Assembly: GCA_944383695.1 (NCBI GenBank)
Contig: CALWQP010000017.1
Coordinates: forward strand, 1 to 60,824
DNA length: 60,824 nt
Source of the DNA: an uncultured Mediterraneibacter sp.
GTDB taxonomy: Bacteria > Bacillota > Clostridia > Lachnospirales > Lachnospiraceae
Reading direction: 5' to 3'
Under the pieces are notes generated by a model. That model did not search any database and was not told the DNA's origin. It saw only the letters and a program-made list of their open reading frames with translations. This document shows, in pieces, positions 4,343-44,112 of the stretch. Both the position numbers and the translations under genes were made by a program. Positions within the stretch are counted from its first letter, which is position 1, and each line of letters starts with the position of its first letter.

Positions 4343-4967
4343 TTATAAGAAGGAATACAAAGATTTCTATCTTCCGCCCAAGGCTCCCGGAATCGCAGAC
4401 ATACCGGAGATGAATTTTGTTGCCGTGCGCGGGAAGGGGAATCCAAACGATCCGAATGGGGAATATAAAAAGGCATTGAGCCTGCTCTATGGAATCTCAT
4501 TCACCATCAAGATGAGTTATAAGAGCATCCACAGAATCGAGGGCTATTTTCCTTATGTAGTCCCTCCTCTGGAAGGGCTGTGGTGGCAGGACGGTATGAC
4601 AGGAATCGACTACTCTCACAAAGAAAAGTTCCGGTGGATCTCCATGATCCGCCTGCCGGAGTTTGTGACAAAAGAAGAGTTTAACTGGGCGGTACGAGAA
4701 GCAGAGAAGAAAAAGGAGGCGGATCTTTCCCGCACAGAGTTCTTTACATATAAGGAAGGACTTTGTGTCCAGTGTATGCATATCGGAAGTTACGACGATG
4801 AACCCGCCACGCTCCGGAAGATGGATGAGTTTCTCTCTGAAAACGGATACCAGCCTGATTTATCCGGAGAGCGGCTGCACCACGAGATATACCTGAGCGA
4901 CCCAAGGCGGACCGCACCGGAAAGACTTAAAACTGTCATACGCCAGCCAATAAAAATCTGCAGGTGA
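4332..4967 (+). CDS. GyrI-like small-molecule-binding domain protein.
   Basis: The PEMNFVAVRGKGNP..PNGEYKKALSLLY pattern is typical of the GyrI-like/YdeE family. It overlaps the upstream gene by 11 nt; RBS is AAAGGAGGAAACG. Confidence 0.6.
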   Translation: MTFDYKKEYKDFYLPPKAPGIADIPEMNFVAVRGKGNPNDPNGEYKKALSLLYGISFTIKMSYKSIHRIEGYFPYVVPPLEGLWWQDGMTGIDYSHKEKFRWISMIRLPEFVTKEEFNWAVREAEKKKEADLSRTEFFTYKEGLCVQCMHIGSYDDEPATLRKMDEFLSENGYQPDLSGERLHHEIYLSDPRRTAPERLKTVIRQPIKICR

Positions 4968-5142
4968 AATGCCGCCAATAAAATCCGCTATTGATTTTCT
5001 CGTTTCCATATAGTATAAATATTAATAAGATTTGGCACTTCCTTGCCGCCGGGTAAGGAGTGGAGCGCCGGACTTTCTATCGGTAGGCCGTTGGAGATAG
5101 AAAGCTCTGACGCTATTTTTTTGTGATTTTAGGAGTGGAGAT

Positions 5143-6471
5143 ATGGAACAGAGATCTTATATGCGGGATTTTTCCCATTATACATTTTTGAGCGTGCTGG
5201 GGACACTGGGGGTGTCCTGCTATATTTTGGCCGATACTTTTTTCGTGTCAATGGGTCTGGGAGCAGACGGGCTTACCGCCTTAAATCTTGCCGTCCCTGT
5301 TTATAACTTTATACATGGGACAGGACTTATGCTGGGCATGGGCGGCGCGACGAAATTTTCCGTCAGCAAAAGCCAGGGCAGATCCGCGGAAGTGAACCGG
5401 ATCTATACGAATACCATTTATCTTGCCCTGCTTTTTTCAGTTGTATTTTTCCTGCCAGGTCTGTTTCTTTCGGAACATTTATCTGTTCTTTTGGGAGCGG
5501 ACGCCGCTGTTTTGGAAATGACAGACACTTACCTGAAATGGCTGCTGCTTTTTGCCCCTGCTTTTATCTTAAACGATGTACTGCTCTGCTTCGTCAGAAA
5601 CGACGGCAGTCCACAGCTGTCCATGGTCGCAATGCTGATCGGCAGTTTCTCGAATATCATATTGGATTATGTTTTCATTTTTCCGCTGGGAATGGGCATT
5701 TTCGGCGCTATTTTTGCCACCGGATTATCCCCGGTCATCAGCATCATCATGATGCTCCCTCACTGGATCAAAAAGAAAAATTCGTTCCACTTTGTAAAGA
5801 CAAGACTAAGCGCCGGCATCGCAAAACAGGATTTGTCTTTAGGCTTTCCGTCCCTGATCACGCAGAGTTCTTCCGGGATCGTGATGATCGTTTTCAATAT
5901 GATCATACTGGGGTTAGAAGGGAATACCGGCGTCGCCGCCTACGGCGTGGTCGCCAATATCTCTCTTGTGATTGTTGCAATATATACAGGCATCGCGCAG
6001 GGTGTCCAGCCTCTGATCAGTACATTTTACGGCGCCGGAAATAAGAAACAGACACAGGCAATGCTGAAATATGCTCTTATGACGATGCTGTCCGTATCCT
6101 TCATAGTCTACCTGATCATTTTTGTTTTCGCACTGCCGATCACTGAAGTCTTTAACAGTGAAAATAATATTCGACTGCAGCAAATCGCAGTAACAGGGCT
6201 GAAGCTGTATTTTACAGCTATCCCATTTATCGGATATAATACGGTCTTGGCAACGTTTTTCACTTCTATAGAAAAAGCTCTGCCCGCACATATCCTATCC
6301 ATTTTAAGAGGTCTGGCGCTGATCATACCTGTGGCATTTTTATTGTCTGTCCTGTGGGGAATGACCGGAGTATGGCTCACCTGCCCGATCGCAGAATTAT
6401 TTACTGCATTACTTGGATTTATCATGTATAATCATTATAACAGATCAACTATTACAGAAAAGAAAGGATGA
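5143..6471 (+). CDS. MATE family efflux transporter.
   Basis: About 12 TM segments with an N-terminus (LSVLGTLGVSCYILADTFFVSMGLGADGLTALNLAVP) typical of MATE/NorM proteins. Confidence 0.85.
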   Translation: MEQRSYMRDFSHYTFLSVLGTLGVSCYILADTFFVSMGLGADGLTALNLAVPVYNFIHGTGLMLGMGGATKFSVSKSQGRSAEVNRIYTNTIYLALLFSVVFFLPGLFLSEHLSVLLGADAAVLEMTDTYLKWLLLFAPAFILNDVLLCFVRNDGSPQLSMVAMLIGSFSNIILDYVFIFPLGMGIFGAIFATGLSPVISIIMMLPHWIKKKNSFHFVKTRLSAGIAKQDLSLGFPSLITQSSSGIVMIVFNMIILGLEGNTGVAAYGVVANISLVIVAIYTGIAQGVQPLISTFYGAGNKKQTQAMLKYALMTMLSVSFIVYLIIFVFALPITEVFNSENNIRLQQIAVTGLKLYFTAIPFIGYNTVLATFFTSIEKALPAHILSILRGLALIIPVAFLLSVLWGMTGVWLTCPIAELFTALLGFIMYNHYNRSTITEKKG

Positions 6472-6750
6472 ATGACCATGAATTTTACGCATGAAGAAAA
6501 CCAGATCGCATTATACTCAGACACAGGCAGTCTGCTTGCAGAGATCACGTTCCCGAATATAGACGAAAACACTGTGGACGTGAACCATACGTTTGTAGAC
6601 GCTTCTCTCAGAGGGCAGGGAATCGCTGGAAAGCTGATGCAGGAACTTGTTTCTGATCTGGAAAAGAAAGGACTTAAGGCTGTGCCCACCTGCTCGTATG
6701 CGCAGGGGTGGTTTGAGAAACATGAAGAGTATGCGCATCTTTTGAAATAG
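6472..6750 (+). CDS. Small GNAT-fold N-acetyltransferase (YjdC-like single domain).
   Basis: LRGQGIAGKLMQELVSDLEKKGLKAVPTCSY is an acetyl-CoA-binding motif region. Its start abuts the MATE stop (tgaATG). Confidence 0.6.
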   Translation: MTMNFTHEENQIALYSDTGSLLAEITFPNIDENTVDVNHTFVDASLRGQGIAGKLMQELVSDLEKKGLKAVPTCSYAQGWFEKHEEYAHLLK

Positions 6751-6940
6751 CGCGAAAAAGAAATAAATGTTCCCGATGTATATTATCTGCAGCATCAATA
6801 CGTTTCAGGCATTTACCGTGATTTAGGATAGGCATTAGACTTTTTTCATGCATGGGAGCTATAATTAGAACAAGACAGCAAAGATAATCTCATAAGGAGG
6901 CTTTTATAATGAAAATTATTATGACACTGATCCTGAATTT

Positions 6941-7597
6941 ATGGAGCGTTTTGAACATTTTGCTTTTGACGAGGTCGTCAATGAAGAAGGACAGCAGCTT
7001 GACGACGTGACCCGCCATATGGCGATCATCGCCACTCTTCTCGGATGTCAGGGCATTGATGAATTTCGCATAGAACTGCCCCTCGCTCTGGATGCGGGAC
7101 TGACTCCGGTCATGGTGAAAGAGATCGTGTATCAGGCAGTGGACTATCTCGGGATCGGACGTGTGCTTCCTTTCCTTGACGCCACGAACGAGATCCTGAC
7201 ATCCCGCAGAGTTGAACTTCCGCTGGAAGGCCAGGCGACAACAACCATGGAGGACCGTCTGGAAAAAGGAATCCAGGTGCAGGCTGACATCTTCGGCGAA
7301 CAGATGAAAGAGGCGTGGAAAGCGGGACATATCAACCGCTGGCTTGCCGCCAACTGCTTCGGAGACTACTATACCCGCACAGGTCTTGACTTGCGGCGGA
7401 GAGAAATGATCACTTTCTGTTTCATTGCCGCTCAGGGCGGGTGTGAACCACAGCTCACAGGCCACGCCCAGGGAAATATGAATATGGGGAATGATAAGGA
7501 TTTCCTCATTAAGGTCGTATCCCAGTGCCTGCCTTACATCGGATATCCCAGAAGCCTGAATGCGATCAACTGCATTAATAAAGCTGCAGAACAATAA
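6941..7597 (+). CDS. Carboxymuconolactone decarboxylase (CMD/AhpD-like) family protein. The true start is probably the ATG at 6909 with a +1 frameshift at an A-run (see findings).
   Basis: The protein is CMD-family over its full length. The RBS AAGGAGG at 6894-6900 serves the ATG at 6909, which is out of frame by one base with the ORF body. Confidence 0.7.
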   Translation: MERFEHFAFDEVVNEEGQQLDDVTRHMAIIATLLGCQGIDEFRIELPLALDAGLTPVMVKEIVYQAVDYLGIGRVLPFLDATNEILTSRRVELPLEGQATTTMEDRLEKGIQVQADIFGEQMKEAWKAGHINRWLAANCFGDYYTRTGLDLRRREMITFCFIAAQGGCEPQLTGHAQGNMNMGNDKDFLIKVVSQCLPYIGYPRSLNAINCINKAAEQ

Positions 7598-36172: not shown

Positions 36173-36706
36173 TTATACTGCTCTATTCAGCGTATCCTGC
36201 ATCAGACAATAACTGATGATAGCGAATCCTACAAATCCCAGAATCAGGTAAAGGATGCCTGAATTCCCGCTCATACCTTTGATCCTGTCACAGCGCTCAC
36301 CCATCTTGTAAAGCCAGTACAGTGCATAGATTCCGCATGTGATAATTGAGAGGAGAAGTACGATCCCTCCGGACGTTGCATTAGGCTCGCCGGACAGTAT
36401 ATTGACTTCATCGTTTAATTTGATCATCCAGTAAATCCCATAAATCCCGCATGTGATAAGAGTTAATATAATACACAGGGGGATGCTTCTCGGTGTGATT
36501 CCAAACTGGGATGCCGAATAATTCTGCGGGCGGCCGTAATCAGCTCCACTGCCATACTGCTGTTGTGTATTATTATACTGATTCTGCGCATTATTATACT
36601 GGCCCTGTGCATCGCTGTACTGCTGCTGCGGAAGAGGAGTCCCGCATTCCGGACAAAAAGTAGTATTGTCATCGCATTGCTTGTTGCATTTCATGCATAT
36701 TTTCAT
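36173..36706 (-). CDS. Zinc-ribbon protein with a Q/N-rich low-complexity linker and a C-terminal DUF4234 membrane domain.
   Basis: CMKCNKQ...CPECG; QQQYSDAQGQYNNAQNQYNNTQQQY; and CGIYGIYWMIKLND...CGIYALYWLYKMG (duplicated DUF4234 motif). RBS is AAGGAGAAAT. Confidence 0.65.
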   Translation of the reverse strand: MKICMKCNKQCDDNTTFCPECGTPLPQQQYSDAQGQYNNAQNQYNNTQQQYGSGADYGRPQNYSASQFGITPRSIPLCIILTLITCGIYGIYWMIKLNDEVNILSGEPNATSGGIVLLLSIITCGIYALYWLYKMGERCDRIKGMSGNSGILYLILGFVGFAIISYCLMQDTLNRAV

Positions 36707-36717
36707 ATATTTCTCCT

Positions 36718-37185
36718 TTATAATATCTGCCAGAATCCCTCCGGTGCCAGCAGTGTAAATGGAAATACCGGGATATTCCTCAGTACCCCATATATCAACA
36801 CGACTACCAGCACTCCGGTAAGGAACTTGACATTGATTTTCTTGTCTATATGATTTCTGCCGGTAATGATCCAGTCCAGTGCGCGTGCTGCAATGTACAG
36901 CCCGATCAGCGGAAGGAGGGCTGTCATAAGCGGGTTATAACAGAAGGCATCCAAAAACCTCCCATGCAGGATAGAATAGCAGGCGCGGCCCGTGCCGCAC
37001 CCTGGACAGTACAGTCCTGTTACTGAGTTAAAAACGCATACCAGAGGAACTCCCTGGGGTGTAGAAAAGTACAGGTACAGTGCCGCGGCACATACCGCAG
37101 CCGCGGCGCATACTGCCACTCCAATCCTTGCCTTTCTGCTCTCACGAAGCCGGCTGCCCATATATCTATATTGATCTCTCCACAT
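36718..37185 (-). CDS. DUF2752-family membrane protein.
   Basis: The CPGCGTGRACYSILHG motif is typical of DUF2752. Its start is 3 nt after the upstream stop. Confidence 0.65.
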   Translation of the reverse strand: MWRDQYRYMGSRLRESRKARIGVAVCAAAAVCAAALYLYFSTPQGVPLVCVFNSVTGLYCPGCGTGRACYSILHGRFLDAFCYNPLMTALLPLIGLYIAARALDWIITGRNHIDKKINVKFLTGVLVVVLIYGVLRNIPVFPFTLLAPEGFWQIL

Positions 37186-37188
37186 GGC

Positions 37189-37845
37189 TTAATAATAATA
37201 ATAGTAAGTGCCTTCATAAATCAGGCTTCCAACCGCCACAGAAATAATCATTGAAACAACAGCCGCTGCAGCTGCTACTATAAGCCAGATTTTTGCCATC
37301 TTTGCTGCTTTTTTTGCCGCTTCCATATCCCCTGCAGTTACTGCACTGTTAATCTTGGCAGAATATACGATCGCAACTATACCAAACGGTATAGCTAATG
37401 AACAACAGCATATTGTAGAAATAACCGTTAAAACAATTGACATAACCAAATATGGCGTTCCATTGACCAACTCTCCCTGCCCCTGCTGATAAGGCGCCTG
37501 ATAATTTCCATTCTGATAATTATTTTGGTAGCCGTTCTGGTAATTATTCTGATAGCCATTCTGATAATTATTCTGCTGGGCATCATTCTGATAGCCGCTT
37601 CCATATCCGGATGTTCCCTGATAACCAGCGTTATAGCTCTGCGTATCCTGATACTGCATGCTTGTTTCCGGCTGTACAGTATCCGGACGCACATTCTCCT
37701 CCGGCTGCACGGTATTTGGCTGAGCTGCCGGTTCTGCCTGCGTATCCGCCGTCCCTGTCTCCGGCACTGCCACCTGCGCAGCGCCGCAGTAAGGACAGAA
37801 CTTGGATCCGTCCGGAATTTCCTGATAACATTTAATACAATTCAT
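37189..37845 (-). CDS. Zinc-ribbon protein with a Q/N/Y-rich repeat linker and a C-terminal CD225/dispanin (IFITM-like) membrane domain.
   Basis: CIKCYQEI...CPYCG; the NYQNGYQNNYQNGYQNNYQNGNYQ repeats; and ...CCCSLAIPFGIVAIVYSAKINSA... (CD225 motif region). Confidence 0.65.
   Translation of the reverse strand: MNCIKCYQEIPDGSKFCPYCGAAQVAVPETGTADTQAEPAAQPNTVQPEENVRPDTVQPETSMQYQDTQSYNAGYQGTSGYGSGYQNDAQQNNYQNGYQNNYQNGYQNNYQNGNYQAPYQQGQGELVNGTPYLVMSIVLTVISTICCCSLAIPFGIVAIVYSAKINSAVTAGDMEAAKKAAKMAKIWLIVAAAAAVVSMIISVAVGSLIYEGTYYYYY
37505..37585 (-). repeat. In-frame tandem nucleotide repeats (CTGATAATTATT-like units) that encode the NYQNGYQ repeats of the CD225 protein.
   Basis: tctgataattattttggtagccgttctggtaattattctgatagccattctgataattattctg. 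Confidence 0.7.
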
Positions 37846-37980: not shown

Positions 37981-38598
37981 TCAGCCAAGTGTATGCGCCG
38001 TTTTCGATCCCGCTGAATGTATCATGCCGGTTTTCATCAGCACCGGACGCAGTGCGTTGTACAGTACGCCCACCAGCAGGACAGAAACCACTGCATTGAC
38101 AAACGTGGTGGCTGTGCTCCACTTTGCAAGGACTTCCGCCATCTGCTGAGGCTGCCCGAGAATATACAGCTTATAGAAATACCCCGCCAGCGGGTCTGCG
38201 ATCACATTGAAGCCAAGGCCTGCTACTGAGGCGAGCACACTCCAGCGTAAAATATATTTTTTGTCAGCGCTCTCGTTGATCCTGGCAATACGGTGAGCAA
38301 CCAGCCCTGCGATCAGCCCGATGCACAGCTTGAGCACAAACGTCTTCGGCGCCCCGACGATATACACCGGATCGAGGATATCAGCGATCGTCATGCCGAC
38401 CGCTCCCGCCAGGCCACCGTACCAGCCGCCCAGGATAAGCGCTCCCAGCACGCAGAATGCATTTCCGATATGGAGAGACGTGGCGTCTCCCCCGGGCATC
38501 GGTATCTTGATCTGCAAAAATGTAAACGATACAAAACAAAGAGCAGCCATCAGCGCTGTCTGTGCAAGCTTTCTCACAGTTTCATTTCTTTTTTCCAT
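37981..38598 (-). CDS. ECF transporter S component (substrate-capture subunit; substrate unknown).
   Basis: Five to six TM segments with the pattern ...LHIGNAFCVLGALILGGWYGGLAGAVGMTIADIL.... RBS is AAGAGGA; start is at MEKRNE. Confidence 0.65.
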   Translation of the reverse strand: MEKRNETVRKLAQTALMAALCFVSFTFLQIKIPMPGGDATSLHIGNAFCVLGALILGGWYGGLAGAVGMTIADILDPVYIVGAPKTFVLKLCIGLIAGLVAHRIARINESADKKYILRWSVLASVAGLGFNVIADPLAGYFYKLYILGQPQQMAEVLAKWSTATTFVNAVVSVLLVGVLYNALRPVLMKTGMIHSAGSKTAHTLG

Positions 38599-38693
38599 GT
38601 AAATGTCCTCTTTTCCTGTCATTGATACAGGTATATTAACATTGATCTGGTCATATTAAAATGTCCAGTTGTGAGTTTTTTGCACATGCCAGT

Positions 38694-41429
38694 TTATTCA
38701 TCTTTTCCAAGCCGCACCCGCTCCATTTCTCTTGCGTCATCTTCTTCGAGATGATCAAACAGATAATGACTGAGCCGACCGCTTTTGCCGAAATGCTCTG
38801 ACTTAAGTTCTTTCCGGGCAAGTTCGACTTCTTCTTTTAACCCCGCGGCAGACATTCTCCGGGCGCCCTGTCCCAGGATGATGACCTGCTCCAGCGCGTC
38901 TGAGGTGGCAACCGTCACTTCATGATGCCTTGAAATCCTTCTCACGGTCTTTTCTATATACTGGTCCGCTGTCTCTGCTTCTCTCGTATACACGATATGG
39001 ATGTTGTGATACCGGGCCACTTCCCCCGGATTCCCCTCCACCTTATAGGCGTCAAACACAAGGATCAGCGTGCATTGCCGACAGCCCTGGTAATCGCACA
39101 GGATGTCAGCCAGCTTTCCCCGCGCCGCCGCAAGGTCCGCTTCAGAAAGCTCTCTCAGTTCATCCCACGCAAAAATGATATTGTATCCGTCTACGAGAAG
39201 ATATTCTTCACGGTCTCCTTTCGTCTTCCTGCGTACGCTGCCGAATCTTTCTCCATTTTTATCAGACGCTCCGTTCCTTGCTGTTCCGCCGTCCCCGGAA
39301 AAATCCGCCGACACGGTCACCGGACGGCTGCTGGCCTTCCTCTTCACCGGATCAGGAGTCCGGACATAGATCGCATCCAGCTCCTCCTGGGTCAGCTCGA
39401 CCGTATGCCTCACCGGGCGCACTGCTGCCACAGGCGCCAGCTCCTGACCGGAGACTGTCGCTTTTACCCCGCTTTCCACATGCATGTGTTCTTCCACCTC
39501 ATACCATGGCACGATAATTCCCGCACCGTGGGAACAAAACACAGAATCCGCTGTATTTTCCACATCTGCGTCTGCATCATACCCGATCCTGCTGACTACT
39601 TCCTCACTGTTATGGCAGACGTCGTAGCCCTTGAGTGTGCAGAACATCCTCCCAAATCCTCCTGTGTACGCGGCAAATTCTTTCTGATATCCCCGCATTT
39701 CCGACACCGGAGCGCAGCCTGTCAGCACTGCCTGCCCATTCTCCGCCTCAGGTCCTTTAAAGCTGCCATTCATCCGCTGGATATCGGACATCGCCCGCCC
39801 CACATTTTCCATAGGAAGCTCCATGCGGAACTCATAATAGGGCTCCAGCAGAAGACTCTCTGCTTTCCGCAGCCCCTGACGGACCGCCCGGTAAGTCGCC
39901 TGACGGAAATCTCCGCCCTCTGTATGTTTCTGATGTGCCCGCCCGGTCAGGAGTGTGATCCGCATATCCGTCACTGCTGACCCTGTCAGGACTCCCTTGT
40001 GTTCTCTCTCTTCCATGTGAGTCAGGATCAGCCTCTGCCAGTTCCGGTCCAGGACGTCCTCGGCACATTCCGATAAGAACTGCATCCCGTACCCCCGCTC
40101 TCCCGGCTCCAGCAGAAGGTGCACCTCTGCATAATGACGGAGCGGCTCAAAATGCCCGATGCCTTCCACCGGAGCTTTGATCGTTTCCTTGTAGACAATA
40201 TTTCCTTCTCCAAAACCGATGAGCACGCCAAAACGTTGTTTCACCATCTGTTGGAGGACTTCTGTCTGCACCTCTCCCATGAGCTGGATGTGTATCTCAG
40301 ACGTCTCCTCCGCCCATACTACATGGAGCTGCGGCTCTTCTTCCTCGATCTGCCGGAGATTCCTGAGCATTGTATGCACATCGCACCCATCCGGCAGTTC
40401 GATCCGGTATGTAAGCACCGGCTCCAGCACCGGCAGCTCCGACGCCTTTTCACAGCCAATCCCCTGCCCGGGATGTGTATCTTCCAGCCCGGTCACAGCG
40501 CACACTGTCCCTGCCTGTGCCTCCTGCACCATCTCGTATTTCTCGCCGGAATAAATCCGGATCTGGTTGACTTTGCCCGGAACGTCCGGAAGCGACTCCT
40601 TCACCCGCAGGACACCGCCCATTATCTTAAGCCAGGTCAAACGGTTCCCCTGAGCGTCACGGGATATCTTATATACTTTCGCGCCAAAATCCTGTCCATA
40701 CTGCGGGCAGGGGGAGAGCTCTGTAAGCCCATCCAGCAGTTCTGTGATCCCCTCTGCCCTCAAAGCTGATCCGAACCAGCACGGGAAAACCTTTCGCTCA
40801 GACACTCCCCTGCGCAGCGTCTCTCTCCCGACGGTGCCCTTCTCCAGATATTCTTCCAGCATAGCTTCGTCACAGACAGCCAGGCTTTCTATCTTATCCT
40901 CATCACCGGCATAAACCCCTTCAATGTCTGCACACCCCTCGCCAAACCTTTCTCGCAATTTTTCCATGAGTTTTTCCCTGTCCGCGTCATCCCTGTCCAT
41001 CTTATTGACAAAGAGAAACACCGGGATCTCATACCTTTTCAAAAGCCTCCAGAGCGTCAGGGTATGGCTCTGTACACCGTCAGCCGCATTGATCACGAGC
41101 ACCGCGCAGTCCAGCACTTGAAGCACACGCTCCATCTCCGCAGAAAAATCCACATGTCCGGGAGTGTCAAGAAGCGTTACTTCCATATCCTTCCACTGGA
41201 ACATCGCCTGTTTAGAAAAGATCGTAATGCCGCGTTCCCGCTCAAGTTCGTATGTATCAAGGAATGCATCCCCATGATCCACGCGCCCCATGCTGCGTAT
41301 CCGGCCGCTCAAATAGAGCATGCCCTCTGTCAATGTGGTCTTGCCCGCATCTACATGAGCGAGAATCCCGATGCAGATATGCCTTTCCCCTGCTGTCTTA
41401 TTTTCTTTATTGTCAGACGTATTTCCCAT
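38694..41429 (-). CDS. Fusion protein: a complete TetM/EF-G-like translational GTPase (G domain plus domains II-V, about 640 aa), a low-complexity basic/Ser-rich linker, and a C-terminal YacP/Rae1-like NYN (PIN-like) ribonuclease domain.
   Basis: G1 AHVDAGKTT, G2 RGITI, G3 DTPGHVDF, G4 NKMD. Domain II reads GAKVYKISRDAQGNRLTWLKIMGGVL, like Tet(M) [25 protein letters not shown]. The C-terminus EYLLVDGYNIIFAWDEL...LVFDAYKVEG...IVYTREAETADQYIEK...VTVATSDALEQVIILGQGARRMSAAGL aligns with B. subtilis Rae1/YacP along its length. The start at MGNTSD (41429) has the RBS GGAAAGGGG. Confidence 0.8.
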   Translation of the reverse strand: MGNTSDNKENKTAGERHICIGILAHVDAGKTTLTEGMLYLSGRIRSMGRVDHGDAFLDTYELERERGITIFSKQAMFQWKDMEVTLLDTPGHVDFSAEMERVLQVLDCAVLVINAADGVQSHTLTLWRLLKRYEIPVFLFVNKMDRDDADREKLMEKLRERFGEGCADIEGVYAGDEDKIESLAVCDEAMLEEYLEKGTVGRETLRRGVSERKVFPCWFGSALRAEGITELLDGLTELSPCPQYGQDFGAKVYKISRDAQGNRLTWLKIMGGVLRVKESLPDVPGKVNQIRIYSGEKYEMVQEAQAGTVCAVTGLEDTHPGQGIGCEKASELPVLEPVLTYRIELPDGCDVHTMLRNLRQIEEEEPQLHVVWAEETSEIHIQLMGEVQTEVLQQMVKQRFGVLIGFGEGNIVYKETIKAPVEGIGHFEPLRHYAEVHLLLEPGERGYGMQFLSECAEDVLDRNWQRLILTHMEEREHKGVLTGSAVTDMRITLLTGRAHQKHTEGGDFRQATYRAVRQGLRKAESLLLEPYYEFRMELPMENVGRAMSDIQRMNGSFKGPEAENGQAVLTGCAPVSEMRGYQKEFAAYTGGFGRMFCTLKGYDVCHNSEEVVSRIGYDADADVENTADSVFCSHGAGIIVPWYEVEEHMHVESGVKATVSGQELAPVAAVRPVRHTVELTQEELDAIYVRTPDPVKRKASSRPVTVSADFSGDGGTARNGASDKNGERFGSVRRKTKGDREEYLLVDGYNIIFAWDELRELSEADLAAARGKLADILCDYQGCRQCTLILVFDAYKVEGNPGEVARYHNIHIVYTREAETADQYIEKTVRRISRHHEVTVATSDALEQVIILGQGARRMSAAGLKEEVELARKELKSEHFGKSGRLSHYLFDHLEEDDAREMERVRLGKDE

Positions 41430-41468
41430 AGAAAATACCCCTTTCCGTTTTATAATCATACATCCGTA

Positions 41469-41497
41469 ATCATATCACAGAAAGAGATATAAGTCGA
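41469..41497 (-). promoter_or_regulatory. Predicted promoter of the GTPase-NYN gene (minus strand TCGACT-17-TGaTATGAT, an extended -10).
   Basis: Minus strand reads TCGACTTATATCTCTTTCTGTGATATGAT. Confidence 0.45.
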
Positions 41498-41699: not shown

Positions 41700-42389
41700 T
41701 CAGTCTCCCACTCCGAAATCCGTATTTTCATAAAGGACTTCCACCACCGGGTCTTCCCGCAGCCACTCGTATTCCCGGACAAACCACTCCACCAGCTCCG
41801 GATCCTGACGGATGGGCGTTGTATTGTCCGTAAATACATTAATTGTCCCAAGCCGGAAATATTTCTTCAGGATCTGTATATCTGTGTCGATCATCTGCTT
41901 GGTCTGTCCCCGGATCCCGACCATAATGCAGGGAGAGTCAAAATATTCTGCCACTTCCTCCGGCGTCTTAAAATCCGCATGCTTGTTGAGCACCTTTTCC
42001 CGAAAATCATTGTCAAACGTTTCCACGCCAATCTTATAAGTGATCGGAACACCCATAAAATACCGCATTTCCTCAAGGTGTTTTCGGTACATCCAGTGGC
42101 TTTCAAAAAACAGCCGCCCAATGCCCTTCTTTCGGACCACTTTTCTGATCTCCTCTCTGGTGCCGGCGGGCAGTTCAAAACAGCTTCCCGAATTGATGAC
42201 TTCCAGTACTCCCATTTCCCCGGTGACCCGGGAGAGAATGTGGGAATTGAGCGCCAGCATCTCGTGCTCGTTCCGGGAGTTGTCATCAATATAATCGCAG
42301 AAGGTACATTTTCCCCACGCGCAGGGGTAGGACTTTAGCAGCACGATTTCCCGTTGATTCTTCTCCCGGATCACATTATACCTTTCCAT
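41700..42389 (-). CDS. Small radical-SAM-like Fe-S protein with an unusual Cx4Cx2C motif; a candidate queuine lyase (QueL-like) of the queuosine salvage cluster.
   Basis: YPCAWGKCTFCDY cysteine triad near the N-terminus; 229 aa; last gene of the preQ1-riboswitch operon. RBS is AAAGGGGA. Confidence 0.5.
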   Translation of the reverse strand: MERYNVIREKNQREIVLLKSYPCAWGKCTFCDYIDDNSRNEHEMLALNSHILSRVTGEMGVLEVINSGSCFELPAGTREEIRKVVRKKGIGRLFFESHWMYRKHLEEMRYFMGVPITYKIGVETFDNDFREKVLNKHADFKTPEEVAEYFDSPCIMVGIRGQTKQMIDTDIQILKKYFRLGTINVFTDNTTPIRQDPELVEWFVREYEWLREDPVVEVLYENTDFGVGD

Positions 42390-42951
42390 CCGCGCGTCCC
42401 CTTTGCAAATGCATTTTCAGTCGGCTCCCAAGGCTTGCCGACAGCGCCAGCACCATCAGCACTGAGATCAGCCGGTCAGCATAATCCGTCACGATCTGTA
42501 CGAGAAAGGCGCTGACCGTCATGTTCAGACCAAGGTGGTAGAAAAGCTGAACGAGCAGGGAGGAACCGGAGGACGTCACGCCGCCGAACACAAATGCGGA
42601 AACAGACGCGCTCATCGCGGTCCCGGGCACAGTCAGAGCCAGACTTCCGGGAACCACCTTCCAGCCTTTTAACAGCCCTCTCCGGAACAGCAGACCCGAC
42701 ATCAGACCCGTGACCGCGCCCGCCGGCATAAAATACAGGGAATAGATATCCGTTGTCATTCCGGTGATCAGACCACTTCCCACAGCAGCAGCCATCCCAT
42801 ACCATGGTCCCATCAGAGCGCCTGCCAGGATGGTTCCGATGCTGTCCAGATAGATGGGCAGCCGCAACATCAGCGCAAGATCCGCTCCCACAATATTCAC
42901 AACAATGCACAGCGCTGCCACGGACAGGCACAATATATTAGTTTTTTTCAT
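42376..42951 (-). CDS. ECF transporter S component, QueT-like (queuosine/precursor transporter candidate).
   Basis: Five to six TM segments, Gly/Ala-rich helices. Sits between a nucleoside hydrolase and a radical SAM gene under a preQ1 riboswitch. RBS is GAGGAG. Confidence 0.55.
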   Translation of the reverse strand: MKKTNILCLSVAALCIVVNIVGADLALMLRLPIYLDSIGTILAGALMGPWYGMAAAVGSGLITGMTTDIYSLYFMPAGAVTGLMSGLLFRRGLLKGWKVVPGSLALTVPGTAMSASVSAFVFGGVTSSGSSLLVQLFYHLGLNMTVSAFLVQIVTDYADRLISVLMVLALSASLGSRLKMHLQRGRADGKV

Positions 42952-43936
42952 ACCGTATCTTCTCCTCTGTCATGATCTGCCCAAGGATTTTCCTGATCTC
43001 TCTTACGTCTCCTCCGCAGAGCCGTTCCAGAAACAGCTCCATAAATCCTCTCTCATCCACCTCTGCCAGTATATGGCTGTTGGGTTCTTTTTTCCAGAAA
43101 TTTTCCCTGTCCACCAGTGTCTGTCCAATGGATATGCCCTCTGTCTCCACCGCGGTATAAGCGTCAAAGCCCTGGCATAAATGGGGCTTACACATATATG
43201 CCACTGCCAGAGGATCATTGATGACACAGCCGATGAGCCCTTCCTGCTTCCAGTGGAAATCAAGATAAAAACGGGTGATTTCCTCCGTAAATCCCCCCAC
43301 CCTTTGGTTCAATCGTTTCATATACTCCAGCAGATTGGGCGTCAGGACGATTTTTCTCGTCACATCCAGCCCCACCATATTAATGGGTGATGTCAGCTTC
43401 TCATAGACATATGCCGCTGCGTCCGGGTCACACCAGTAATTATACTCCGCTACGGGGGAACAGTTGCCGTGGCTCTTATAGCTGCCGCCCATGGATACCA
43501 GTTCATCCAGATTTTCAAAAACCTCCGGCTCTTTTTTAAGCGCCAGCGCCACGTTAGTCAGCGGTCCGATTGCCAGCAGGGAGATCCCTTTCTCCTTTTT
43601 CAGTGTATCCAGAATAAATTCCACTGCCTGGGGATGTATCTTCTCATCCTGCACATCCTCAAGCCCGGATTCTCCCAGCCCGTCTTTCCCATGGGTATCC
43701 TGGGCGCTGATATACTCCCGCCTCAGAGGCTTATCTGCTCCCTGATATACCGGGATATCAAGCCGCCCCATAAAACGCAGCACTTTCAGGGCATTTTTTG
43801 TCCCCAGATCTACCGGAACATTGCCGCACACCGCAGTAATGCCCACCACCTCAAGTTCCGGAGAGGACAGCGCGAGCATCAGAGCCAGGCTGTCATCAAT
43901 CCCCGGATCGCAGTCAATGATTACTTTTTTCTTCAT
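42938..43936 (-). CDS. Nucleoside hydrolase (IU-NH family); a candidate queuosine hydrolase.
   Basis: The N-terminal VIIDCDPGIDDSLALMLAL is the DXDXXXDD Ca-binding fingerprint of nucleoside hydrolases. The start at MKKKVII has the RBS GAGGAAAGGAAGG. Confidence 0.85.
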   Translation of the reverse strand: MKKKVIIDCDPGIDDSLALMLALSSPELEVVGITAVCGNVPVDLGTKNALKVLRFMGRLDIPVYQGADKPLRREYISAQDTHGKDGLGESGLEDVQDEKIHPQAVEFILDTLKKEKGISLLAIGPLTNVALALKKEPEVFENLDELVSMGGSYKSHGNCSPVAEYNYWCDPDAAAYVYEKLTSPINMVGLDVTRKIVLTPNLLEYMKRLNQRVGGFTEEITRFYLDFHWKQEGLIGCVINDPLAVAYMCKPHLCQGFDAYTAVETEGISIGQTLVDRENFWKKEPNSHILAEVDERGFMELFLERLCGGDVREIRKILGQIMTEEKIRYEKN

Positions 43937-44011: not shown

Positions 44012-44041
44012 CGGAAGGCGCACTTTTCTGCAATTGTATCC

Positions 44042-44075
44042 TTAGTTTTTTATACTGGGAAGTTCTCGAACCAGT
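44042..44075 (-). promoter_or_regulatory. preQ1-I riboswitch aptamer (34 nt).
   Basis: Minus strand reads ACUGGUUCGAGAACUUCCCAGUAUAAAAAACUAA, against B. subtilis queC ACUAGG-type AGAGGUUCUAGCUACACCCUCUAUAAAAAACUAA. Same length, identical 3' tail UAUAAAAAACUAA, conserved GGUUC and CCC, and P1 with compensatory changes (ACUGG/CCAGU versus AGAGG/CCUCU). Confidence 0.85.
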
Positions 44076-44112
44076 CCGGGGCAATCCCCGGGTTCCAATG
44101 CAATTCCGGTTA

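Follow-up and report, generated by a model that had tools for sequence, protein, structure and literature searches.

A translational GTPase fused to a Rae1-type nuclease in Mediterraneibacter, a further member of a fusion family common in gut Clostridia

We analyzed a 60,824-nucleotide window of DNA from an uncultured Mediterraneibacter sp. and focused on a minus-strand gene for a GTPase fused to an NYN_YacP nuclease. The complete coding sequence lies at 38694..41429 (-) and encodes 911 amino acids plus a stop codon, as indicated by the list of open reading frames, by Pfam and by the single reading frame present in 80 of 80 homologous loci. The longest version of the frame, from the first ATG, covers 38694..41459 (-) and 921 amino acids. 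The ATG at 41429 is the likely start because a Shine-Dalgarno sequence, GGAAAGGGG at 41438..41446 (-), sits 8 nt ahead of it, so the limits given to the coding sequence in a preliminary description of this DNA are likely right. That description also assigned the gene its own extended -10 promoter, and a consensus scan together with inspection of the sequence did find a promoter-like site, TCGACT-17-TGaTATGAT with the upstream TG, at 41469..41497 (-), which is a consensus match only. This candidate promoter would yield a 5' untranslated region of about 30 nt, too short for a tet(M)-style leader. The surrounding genes are as previously described: a PreQ1 riboswitch (44036-44080 (-), 53 bits), followed by genes for a nucleoside hydrolase, an ECF S-component and a radical-SAM protein, precedes the fusion gene, and an ECF S-component gene (37981-38622) comes after it. 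A link to the queuosine operon had been raised as speculation from this arrangement; the adjacency is conserved in 0 of 80 related loci and is incidental.

Domains were assigned with Pfam, the fold was predicted with AlphaFold2, and structural relatives were identified with Foldseek. Pfam matches for both halves fall within one reading frame, bearing out the proposed two-module architecture. The GTPase half matches GTP_EFTU (residues 15-238, E 3.7e-55), EFG_III (336-404), EFG_IV (410-524) and EFG_C (527-608), with EF-G_D2 (249-318) scoring 24.2 bits, slightly under its gathering cut-off of 27. The C-terminal half matches NYN_YacP at residues 744-906 (E 3.6e-51), and its score of 173.9 bits (cut-off 24.6), over model positions 1-165 of 166, agrees with the likeness to Rae1 first noticed there. 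The AlphaFold2 model of the 911-residue protein has a mean pLDDT of 90.2. It folds residues 15-661 and 740-882 with confidence and leaves 662-679 and 691-737 disordered. All five EF-G domains of the GTPase module exceed a pLDDT of 90, and the best structural matches of this module are ribosome-bound EF-G chains (E 1e-53).

The G domain (residues 15-238, 40716..41387 (-)) carries G1 AHVDAGKT, G2 RGITI, G3 DTPGH and G4 NKMD, and the His of G3 is the catalytic His92. As the preliminary description held, these motifs are intact: the residues of G1 to G4 and His92 are invariant or nearly so, being kept in 131 to 139 of 139 members of the fusion family. A beta-barrel domain II follows at residues 249-325 (40455..40685 (-)), identified by the EF-G_D2 match below cut-off and by beta strands in the AlphaFold2 model, and then come domain III (336-404, 40218..40424 (-)), domain IV (410-524, 39858..40202 (-)) and domain V (527-600, 39630..39851 (-)). 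Domain IV bears two family-specific tip loops, G423-x-GHFEPLRHYAEV436 and G496-RAH-x-KHTEGGDFR509, which are the most conserved segments across the whole family. The GTPase ends in a folded extension (601-661, 39447..39629 (-), pLDDT 95-97) with the pattern GY.pCHN..EV....YDP..D..N...SVFC.HGAG..V.W..V...MH. No Pfam family matches these residues, and the extension is kept in fused and unfused members of the subfamily.

Beyond the extension lies a disordered linker (residues 662-739, 39213..39446 (-), pLDDT <50). A basic, Ser-rich linker of about 70 residues had been described between the modules; the spacer spans about 90 (653-743). The folded extension of 50 to 60 residues had been counted as linker or GTPase, and the spacer begins only after it. 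Across the family the linker varies from 45 to 142 residues, is basic in the part directly ahead of the nuclease, and has a positive net charge in 96% of 118 members. Within it is a conserved short motif, E-[LI]-x-x-I-F-x-R-T-[YF]-G (residues 681-693, 39351..39389 (-)), in which, out of 119 members, 102 have E683 and 107 have I687; AlphaFold2 predicts a helix at 681-689 with a pLDDT of about 66. We also considered whether the two halves were joined in assembly. The frame is continuous, and because a single reading frame (847-1080 amino acids) covers both halves in 80 of 80 loci from different species, the fusion is not an assembly artifact.

The nuclease core (residues 740-882, 38784..39212 (-)) was delimited by Pfam and by alignment to the B. 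subtilis YacP/Rae1 chains 5MQ8/5MQ9, which match the C-terminal part of the protein over residues 3-135 (E 1e-22). It is followed by a C-terminal tail (883-911, 38697..38783 (-)) with a predicted helix at 896-906, part of which also aligns with the stand-alone Rae1 of C. difficile. In tblastn, the nuclease is 40% identical to this stand-alone homolog over 171 of 175 residues, and fused NYN domains are 36 to 50% identical to it over up to all 175. The fusion thus shares with Rae1 (PF05991) the full-length nuclease domain and the four acidic active-site residues: D7, D53, D81 and D104 of Rae1 correspond to D747, D793, D822 and D844. All four are kept in 137 to 139 of 139 members. The motif VFDAY, which had been equated with D81, contains the counterpart of D53, and D81 corresponds to D822 within ETAD. 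The catalytic sites of both modules are therefore intact under purifying conservation. The D7N D81N double mutant is the published catalytically dead form of Rae1 (PMC10351889). The fused domain would be expected to cleave mRNA in a translation-coupled manner, as Rae1 does. The two differ in setting: Rae1 stands alone, with about 170 amino acids, and is encoded beside rlmB and sigH, in the canonical order cysS-mrnC-rlmB-rae1-sigH seen in C. difficile, whereas the fused nuclease is the C-terminus of a 911-residue protein encoded elsewhere, in an unrelated context.

The GTPase half had been likened to Tet(M) and Tet(O), and the general resemblance is real: the five-domain EF-G-like fold, the G motifs, the domain order and a reduced G' region are common to both, and domain IV of the fusion GTPase should likewise reach the decoding center. 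The best NCBIfam model is tet_protect (NF012153), and RefSeq names many members TetM/TetW/TetO/TetS family. A ribosomal protection protein for tetracycline or another A-site drug, whose GTPase would eject the drug while an accessory RNase modifies rRNA or clears blocked mRNA, has accordingly been entertained, and a novel resistance mechanism was suggested by Atkinson 2015 (PMC4342817). However, the tet_protect score of 429 bits is far under the cut-off of 775, as are 290 bits against 1100 for NF033148 and 238 against 1420 for NF012155. Tet(M)/Tet(O) match at only 31% identity and TetB(P) at 34%, and a distance tree places TetB(P) with Tet(M)/Tet(O), apart from the fusion family. Loop III of the Tet proteins, L505-YYSPV-510, which is key to their function, aligns to R497-A-H-Q-K501-H, so that Pro509 of Tet(M), which touches C1054 in the drug site (PMC8161019, PMC4750697), is replaced by K501; 129 of 139 members have Lys at this position, and its four commonest residues do not include Pro. 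Loop I is 2 residues longer than in Tet(M)/Tet(O), and the short tails of those proteins, which in Tet(M) include a functional C-terminal helix, do not align with the unrelated folded extension of about 60 residues that stands in their place here. The fusion gene, unlike tet genes, is not on mobile elements: true tet genes dominate the matches in IMG/VR, 6 loci there come from the fusion family, several of which lie at contig ends, and the chromosomal contexts of the family vary by genus. The assignment to the Tet(M)/Tet(O) type thus fails in the very residues that define ribosomal protection, loop III and the C-terminal extension, and we consider a resistance role very unlikely. These comparisons indicate a distinct GTPase subfamily rather than a Tet ribosomal protection protein. 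Canonical EF-G was also rejected as an assignment (TIGR00484, 331 bits where the cut-off is 659; about 40 G' residues absent). Relative to EF-G of T. thermophilus, loop I is 4 residues shorter, and the His aligned to H573 of EF-G is kept in 121 of 139 family members.

The preliminary description did not recognize this architecture as a characterized family. A fusion of a Tet-like GTPase with a YacP-like NYN domain in Clostridia had, in fact, already been described by Atkinson 2015 (BMC Genomics, PMC4342817) and, as TetM-NYN_YacP, by Matelska 2017 (NAR, PMC5499597), in about ten species between them, and it is routinely annotated in RefSeq. Our gene belongs to this group and differs from it in nothing of kind, taxon and domain order being alike. 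What we add is that the family is much larger than reported, forming 136 or more clusters at 50% identity, with no fewer than 599 hits among species-representative genomes, and that it is separable from genuine Tet proteins. The architecture recurs in the top 120 homologs, and the closest named relatives, from Mediterraneibacter or Ruminococcus, are 74 to 75% identical. The 80 genome loci are nearly all titled Clostridia, with one metagenome-assembled genome titled 'uncultured Bacteroides'. Divergence roughly tracks taxonomy, with 74% identity in the genus group and 50 to 60% across families. Settings are chromosomal and differ between genera, and no conserved partner gene was found among the 80 loci. 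The best recurring neighbors, MatE transporters and response regulators, occur at 13 of 80 loci, which we judge to be near chance since both families are abundant, and the loci examined lack any neighborhood link to tmRNA, SmpB, RqcH or MutS2. We found no experimental characterization of a family member in the literature searched. On our preferred reading, the fusion protein is a translation factor that Clostridia encode on the chromosome and inherit vertically.

This distribution also bears on the proposal that the protein is a translation-targeting toxin, a stress effector or an anti-phage abortive-infection protein that cuts ribosome-bound RNA. Such a role would suit a nuclease joined to a ribosome-targeting module by a variable linker, and the gene has a GC content of 54.3% against 48.6% for the window. 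PADLOC, however, gave no match; no antitoxin, immunity gene or regulator is a conserved neighbor in the 80 loci; and the family is nearly absent from viral contigs. Presence in so many species-representative genomes, diverging roughly with taxonomy, is a pattern of the housekeeping type, and the apparent promoter is plain and sigma-70-like, with no leader. The toxin or stress-effector reading put forward earlier is unsupported by these data, and we regard it as extremely improbable.

The same GTPase subfamily occurs unfused across Lactobacillaceae, under inconsistent names (EF-G, TetM or GTP-binding protein); Companilactobacillus, Levilactobacillus and the megaplasmids of L. salivarius are examples. 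These 'translation factor GTPase family' proteins of 640 to 665 amino acids are 49% identical to our protein and share its GHFEPLRHY and HT.GGDFR loops and the C-terminal extension, ending in ...MH.E, but they have neither linker nor nuclease. Because the unfused form is widespread on Lactobacillaceae chromosomes, the GTPase should be functional without the nuclease. It could therefore have a function of its own, releasing or remodeling stalled ribosomes like a paralog of EF-G, RF3 or BipA, with the NYN domain a secondary add-on coupled loosely through its long, disordered linker. Set against this, all 80 Clostridia loci keep the two modules in one reading frame, both catalytic centers are conserved, the linker contains a conserved motif, and the persistence of the fusion over long times speaks for modules that act together. 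We consider an independent GTPase function unlikely as the main explanation, although it overlaps with the reading that we prefer.

The two halves are also connected by where they occur apart. Lactobacillaceae have the separate GTPase, and at least one of them, Latilactobacillus curvatus, has a stand-alone, rlmB-linked NYN gene, which together suggest a Rosetta-stone-type link between the GTPase and Rae1. The link is only suggestive because the unfused Lactobacillaceae GTPase genes examined have no NYN neighbor. Among Clostridia outside Peptostreptococcales, the rlmB-rae1 slot contains no rae1 in Monoglobus, Vescimonas and Subdoligranulum, and in Monoglobus the fusion is the sole NYN_YacP match within the incomplete set of records examined. 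This would fit a fusion that is itself the Rae1 ortholog in these Clostridia.

The substrate of the nuclease could in principle be rRNA. In eukaryotes, the PIN-domain nuclease Nob1 works with the GTPase eIF5B in the pre-40S test-drive, and by analogy the fusion might serve in ribosome biogenesis or quality control, docking on immature or damaged ribosomes and trimming or cutting 16S or 23S rRNA, or it might inactivate ribosomes under stress. A basic tether would fit rRNA as well as mRNA, and NYN_YacP was first predicted to act in rRNA/tRNA maturation on the basis of an operon shared with mrnC and rlmB (PMC5499597), an arrangement also found at the C. difficile locus. Yet in all experimental work on Rae1 the substrate is mRNA rather than rRNA (PMC12407103, PMC10351889, PMC13622287), the fused domain is a close, full-length homolog of Rae1, and no ribosome-biogenesis genes are linked to the fusion at the loci examined. 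An rRNA-directed role is thus quite improbable.

The best reading, to which we assign a probability of about 50%, is that the protein is a form of Rae1 that is tethered to a GTPase and cleaves mRNA where ribosomes have stalled. The EF-G/Tet-like module would dock in a GTP-dependent manner at the ribosomal factor-binding site, with the tip of domain IV in the decoding center, and the Rae1-type endoribonuclease would hang off its C-terminus on the basic, flexible tether. The conservation of the tip loops is as expected if sensing at the decoding center is the key function: the module may sense a particular non-productive ribosome, either stalled with an open factor site or collided. In ribosome-bound structures of EF-G and Tet(M), domain IV occupies the A site. 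Because domain IV fills this site, the tethered nuclease could not sit in the A site of the same ribosome. Docking would instead raise the local concentration of nuclease, and mRNA would be cut just outside the bound ribosome, probably on the mRNA entry side or in the inter-ribosome segment of a disome. The truncated mRNA would then be open to tmRNA rescue and to decay, and GTP hydrolysis via His92 would free the factor. The fusion would thereby do what Rae1 does as a separate protein, but with the means of targeting the ribosome built in. We infer ribosome binding, the mRNA substrate, the ribosome state recognized, the place of the cut and the connection to tmRNA; as to the geometry, both the ribosome concerned and the side of the mRNA that is cut are pure conjecture. 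The earlier premise of an A-site GTPase joined to an A-site nuclease is outdated, given the place of domain IV and the finding that Rae1 is tied to collided ribosomes, which it is reported to feed to trans-translation (Tetreault 2026, PMC13622287).

A GTPase-tethered Rae1 would have analogs in function only. In yeast, collisions or stalls trigger the mRNA nuclease Cue2, which acts with Hbs1-Dom34 in GTPase-driven rescue. Like E. coli SmrB, which has been described as an analog of Rae1 (PMC13622287), Cue2 is an mRNA nuclease that acts at stalled or collided ribosomes before rescue. These nucleases, however, have the SMR fold, unrelated to the NYN/PIN-like fold, and in their systems nuclease and GTPase are separate proteins. 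A more specific proposal, possible but doubtful, is that the GTPase subfamily with the GHFEPLRHY loop is, whether fused as in Clostridia or free as in Lactobacillaceae, a ribosome-state sensor that licenses Rae1-type mRNA cleavage on stalled or collided ribosomes, a factor of bacterial GTPase-coupled no-go decay, and that in Clostridia the fusion has replaced stand-alone Rae1.

The gene described here is a further member of a fusion family that was already reported and is common in gut Clostridia, and its labeling has practical consequences. Fusion members and their unfused Lactobacillaceae relatives carry names in RefSeq and elsewhere that in some cases read "TetM from transposon Tn916". Gut resistome surveys are affected by such mislabeling as tetracycline-resistance genes; counts that rely on Tet names would be inflated, as members fail the defining Tet features tested. 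A role in the rescue of collided ribosomes has been assigned to Rae1 only recently. Its ribosome binding is transient, which is why, according to the authors of PMC13622287, there is no structure of it on the ribosome, whereas the fused nuclease is covalently tethered to a GTPase predicted to occupy the factor site. The fusion may therefore offer a trappable Rae1-ribosome complex for cryo-EM. If the GTPase is indeed a ribosome-state sensor, a GTPase-dead or GDPNP-locked form should stay on the ribosome and provide the first structural handle on how Rae1 engages it. That hundreds of Clostridia species have Rae1 fused to such a GTPase suggests the part of the ribosome at which this nuclease works, and the family defines an unstudied subfamily of translational GTPases, with an extremely conserved decoding-center loop, in dominant commensals of the human gut.

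We took the coding sequence of the fusion gene to be 38694-41429 on the minus strand, with the ATG at 41429 as its start and 911 amino acids as its product, because a Shine-Dalgarno sequence (GGAAAGGGG, 8-nt spacer) precedes this ATG. The first in-frame ATG, at 41459, extends the single minus-strand ORF in the ORF list to 38694..41459, but it lacks a Shine-Dalgarno sequence and falls approximately 10 nt past the putative -10 element of a sigma-70-like promoter (extended -10; TCGACT, 17 nt, TGaTATGAT; 41497-41469, minus strand; a consensus match only). Pfam models identify GTP_EFTU (residues 15-238), EFG_III, EFG_IV, and EFG_C in the protein, with EF-G domain 2 near threshold, followed by a full-length NYN_YacP domain (residues 744-906, E = 3.6e-51) that supports the YacP assignment in the preliminary description. 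The C-terminal part also aligns with the Bacillus subtilis YacP/Rae1 crystal chains 5MQ8/5MQ9 (E = 1e-22). An AlphaFold2 model, generated from an alignment of 119 diverse members of the fusion family (mean pLDDT 90.2, pTM 0.75), has confident folds at residues 15-661 and in the NYN domain at 740-882, disorder at 662-679 and 691-737, and a weakly predicted helix at 681-689. When we searched with the whole model in Foldseek, the top matches were EF-G chains, both ribosome-bound and free (E about 1e-53). Together, these data bear out the description of a two-module fusion of a translational GTPase and an NYN nuclease. Long ORFs also lie antisense within the gene (e.g., 38997-39980, plus strand, 327 aa), with similar ones in 58 of 80 homologous loci; rather than being genes, these are most likely a side effect of codon composition.

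The fusion is widespread across the class Clostridia and is both genuine and old. Every protein among the top 120 matches of a word-indexed homologue search has the same architecture; the nearest are 99% identical to the query, and a big group at 75% identity belongs to Mediterraneibacter. When we searched 50%-identity cluster representatives exhaustively, 136 of the best 150 matches are proteins of 820 to 1010 aa, nearly all of which align over both halves of the query at 41 to 61% identity. Scanning one genome per GTDB species yielded at least 599 confirmed matches, and the best 80 loci include Lachnospiraceae, Acutalibacteraceae, Anaerovorax, Fusibacter, Herbinix, Mobilitalea, and the Oscillospiraceae members Flavonifractor, Intestinimonas, Faecalibacterium, and Dysosmobacter, among others. 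A single uninterrupted ORF of 847 to 1080 aa spans both modules in 80/80 loci, which rules out an assembly join or frameshift as the origin of the fusion, a concern that had been raised about the reading frame. At the Intestinimonas butyriciproducens locus, a second translational-GTPase-like segment (7198-7581), 42% identical to query residues 20-149, is found on the opposite strand, about 2.4 kb upstream of the fusion gene.

The preliminary description implied that the architecture had gone unrecognised, but two earlier papers, one of them by Matelska et al., report it (PMC4342817; PMC5499597). The query is a further member of a family known in the literature and in RefSeq, not an unprecedented architecture. 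Calling the family uncharacterised was right, as our full-text literature searches found no functional study of the fusion; the recent papers on Rae1 do not mention it.

The GTPase half had been described as Tet(M)/EF-G-type, with a domain II strongly resembling that of the ribosomal protection proteins Tet(M) and Tet(O). The G motifs are intact and the domains are EF-G-like: across 139 aligned fusion proteins, G1 (AHVDAGKT), G2 (RGITI), G3 (DTPGH), and G4 (NKxD) are invariant or nearly so, and the catalytic His92 in G3 is present in 138. On the basis of these motifs, we expect the fusion GTPase to be working and ribosome-activated. The Tet part of the assignment fails each specific test. Although tet_protect is the best NCBIfam model, the query scores 429 bits against its cut-off of 775; scores with the TetM/W/O/S and Tet(M) models are 290 bits against 1100 and 238 bits against 1420, respectively. 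The query is 31% identical to authentic Tet(M) and Tet(O) and 34% identical to TetB(P). Neighbour-joining on domains I to V places the family at distances of 0.69 to 0.80 from Tet(M), compared to at most 0.5 among the sampled family members, and TetB(P) clusters with Tet(M)/Tet(O).

The tip of domain IV separates the two groups further. In loop III of Tet(M), L505-Y-Y-S-P509-V, the proline occupies the drug site at C1054 (PMC8161019; PMC4750697), whereas the aligned residues of the query are R497-A-H-Q-K501-H; position 501 is Lys in 129/139 members, and its four most frequent residues do not include Pro. The tip loops of the family, G423-x-G-H-F-E-P-L-R-H-Y-A-E-V and G496-R-A-H-x-K-H-T-E-G-G-D-F-R, belong to the best-conserved parts of the protein, with many positions conserved at 95% or more. 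Compared to Thermus thermophilus EF-G, loop I of the fusion is four residues shorter; a His aligned to EF-G H573 is kept in 121/139 members. After domain V, the family carries an extension of about 60 residues (601-661; 39447-39629, minus strand) that is predicted to fold with confidence and has conserved residues Y617, D622, S629-V-F-C, G635, W642, and H650. Tet(M) and Tet(O) lack this extension, and their own C-terminal extension does not align with it. No Pfam model covers the segment, and the Foldseek search, which returned only EF-G-type chains, gave no match showing what it resembles. The NCBIfam scores, the 31 to 34% identity, the tree, loop III, and the C-terminal extension rule out a Tet assignment, and a role for the fusion in protecting ribosomes from antibiotics appears very unlikely. 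Among the 139 members, several Cys and His residues of the extension are partly conserved (C605 in 123, H606 in 84, C632 in 120, H634 in 104, and H650 in 128), and these might form a metal site or merely pack the core. Public names for the subfamily are inconsistent and often wrong, including 'TetM/TetW/TetO/TetS family tetracycline resistance ribosomal protection protein', 'TetO', 'elongation factor G', and 'Tetracycline resistance protein TetM from transposon Tn916'. Labels of this kind are likely to give rise to false positives when resistomes are surveyed.

The same GTPase also occurs without a nuclease. Megaplasmids of Ligilactobacillus salivarius encode an unfused protein of 644 aa, 49% identical to the query, which has the loops and C-terminal extension of the fusion and stops straight after the extension. 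Chromosomal copies (640 to 665 aa) are found in Companilactobacillus, Levilactobacillus, and Paucilactobacillus, and proteins of the same length range in Pediococcus and Lactiplantibacillus fabifermentans; their source names are "elongation factor G", "GTP-binding protein", "TetM from transposon Tn916", and "translation factor GTPase family protein". We examined the neighbours of the unfused Lactobacillaceae genes and found no adjacent NYN gene and no conserved partner. Because the unfused members share the loops and extension and nest inside the fusion family in the distance tree, the family forms a translational GTPase subfamily of its own, with free-standing members in Lactobacillaceae and Rae1-fused members in Clostridia. 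A GTPase that functions autonomously, with the nuclease only loosely coupled to it, is a minor possibility in our estimation. On the L. salivarius megaplasmid (4399-6917), the unfused GTPase gene, whose product has conserved Cys and His positions in the C-terminal extension, divergently adjoins a copy of rpsN (ribosomal protein S14) and a gene for a 35-aa 'putative metal homeostasis protein', an arrangement that is reminiscent of zinc-starvation ribosomal-protein paralogue loci.

Alignment of the nuclease half to B. subtilis Rae1 pairs D7 with D747 (LLVDGYN), D53 with D793 (VFDAY), D81 with D822 (ETAD), and D104 with D844 (ATSD). The preliminary description had paired D81 with VFDAY, which corresponds to D53. 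The conservation of the catalytic Asp residues, which it had proposed to check, holds: the four PIN-type acidic residues are kept in 137, 138, 137, and 139 of the 139 fusion proteins, respectively. The published catalytic-dead Rae1 is D7N D81N (PMC10351889). Given this conservation and the 36 to 50% identity of the fused NYN domain to the stand-alone Rae1 of Clostridioides difficile, over up to all 175 residues, the fused nuclease is very probably active and Rae1-like.

A linker of 45 to 142 residues (median 87), disordered in the AlphaFold2 prediction, joins the extension to the nuclease and holds one conserved short motif, E683-[LI]-x-x-I687-F-x-R-T-[YF]-G (E in 102/119 members and I in 107/119). 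In 96% of members, the segment past this motif has a net positive charge; its median content is 10.5 Lys+Arg in 35 residues. Such properties would be expected of a leash that is flexible and RNA-friendly and carries one docking element. That such a tethered nuclease would cleave rRNA, or act in quality control of ribosome biogenesis, seems to us rather unlikely.

For stand-alone Rae1, the NYN gene directly follows rlmB in C. difficile, in Acetoanaerobium, and in those Bacilli that we examined, and rlmB-rae1-sigH linkage is typical of Bacilli and C. difficile. Three further informative rlmB regions came from PLSDB records that are mislabelled chromosome pieces. In all three, from Monoglobus pectinilyticus, Vescimonas fastidiosa, and Subdoligranulum variabile, this linkage is broken: other genes follow rlmB, and no NYN gene was detected beside it at E values up to 10. 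Monoglobus encodes the fusion at another locus (862 aa, 57% identical in its GTPase part), and it is the sole NYN_YacP match in the incomplete set of PLSDB records for this organism. This pattern, from very few and incomplete genomes, fits the fusion being the Rae1 orthologue in these lineages. No second NYN gene lies within about 10 kb of the fusion in the window or at any locus.

The surroundings of the gene had been described correctly. Upstream, a PreQ1-I riboswitch (RF00522, 53 bits; 44036-44080) heads a three-gene stretch, all on the minus strand, that encodes a queK-like nucleoside hydrolase (42938-43936), a qrtT-like ECF S-component (42376-42951), and a queL-like, radical-SAM-like protein of 229 aa (41700-42389) with no Pfam match and only a weak RaSEA match. 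In order and content, 41700-44080 matches the queK-qrtT-queL operon for preQ1/queuosine salvage known from C. difficile (PMC11477304). Another ECF S-component gene lies downstream of the fusion gene. We searched 80 homologous loci by tblastn with the three queuosine genes and seven other neighbours from the window. The queuosine genes adjoin the fusion in 0/80 loci, and the adjacency, which had been noted as intriguing, is coincidental; the downstream ECF-S, DUF2752, and pyrF/pyrK genes are shared solely with the closest relative (74% identity). De novo clustering of neighbours across the 80 loci revealed no operon partner, as the recurring neighbours, in 13 loci or fewer, are abundant families only (MatE, response regulators, ABC ATPases, and histidine kinases). 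Three consecutive small membrane proteins, two with N-terminal zinc ribbons, are encoded at 36173-37845 on the minus strand: a zinc ribbon-CD225 protein (218 aa) with a Q/N/Y-rich repeat region, a DUF2752 protein (155 aa) that the closest relative also has downstream of its fusion gene, and a zinc ribbon-DUF4234 protein (177 aa).

The preliminary description had also considered a translation-targeting toxin or stress effector. PADLOC gave no match, and a scan of IMG/VR found six loci of the fusion's GTPase subfamily, several at contig ends, versus dozens of tet genes; the other IMG/VR loci are mostly genuine tet(M)/tet(O)-like genes, 29 to 32% identical to the query, on contigs that are presumably integrative elements or prophage-adjacent regions. 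These results reject a toxin or defence role, which we regard as hardly plausible. The GC content of the fusion gene is 54.3% (59.6% in the linker region) against a window average of 48.6%. This is at the upper limit of what 2.7-kb windows span (mean 48.9%, sd 2.7) and is not enough to indicate transfer. The gene appears to be solitary, chromosomal, and vertically inherited, and it resembles neither a resistance cassette nor a toxin-antitoxin pair nor a defence island.

In ribosome structures of EF-G and Tet(M), domain IV of such factors fills the A site; therefore, a C-terminally tethered nuclease of the same molecule cannot sit there. In addition, Rae1 cuts at the trailing edge of the ribosome and not, as was originally suggested, in the A site (PMC12407103), and the suggestion of an A-site scaffold carrying an A-site nuclease is outdated on both steric and factual grounds. 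The rise in tmRNA tagging caused by ribosome collisions requires Rae1, of which no ribosome-bound structure exists (PMC13622287). Overall, we read the fusion as a GTPase-delivered Rae1 for mRNA cleavage at stalled ribosomes, with a probability of about 0.5. The GTPase module would dock on a non-productive ribosome via the factor site, where its conserved loops would sense the decoding centre; the leash would give the nuclease reach to mRNA just outside the bound ribosome, and GTP hydrolysis would free the factor. One attractive geometry, which is inferred, would place the fusion on the trailing, collided ribosome, whose mRNA entry side meets the stalled leader at its exit side, the position of the -12 cut.

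Going beyond the published architecture, our computational analysis separates the family from true Tet proteins, defines a GTPase subfamily that has an unfused branch in Lactobacillaceae, describes a conserved extension and a conserved motif in the linker, reports how large the family is and how it is distributed, finds no operon context, and reconciles the fusion with the revised mechanism of Rae1. Experimental follow-up is worthwhile because genes of this family are mislabelled as tetracycline-resistance determinants, and because it could yield a trappable Rae1-ribosome complex.
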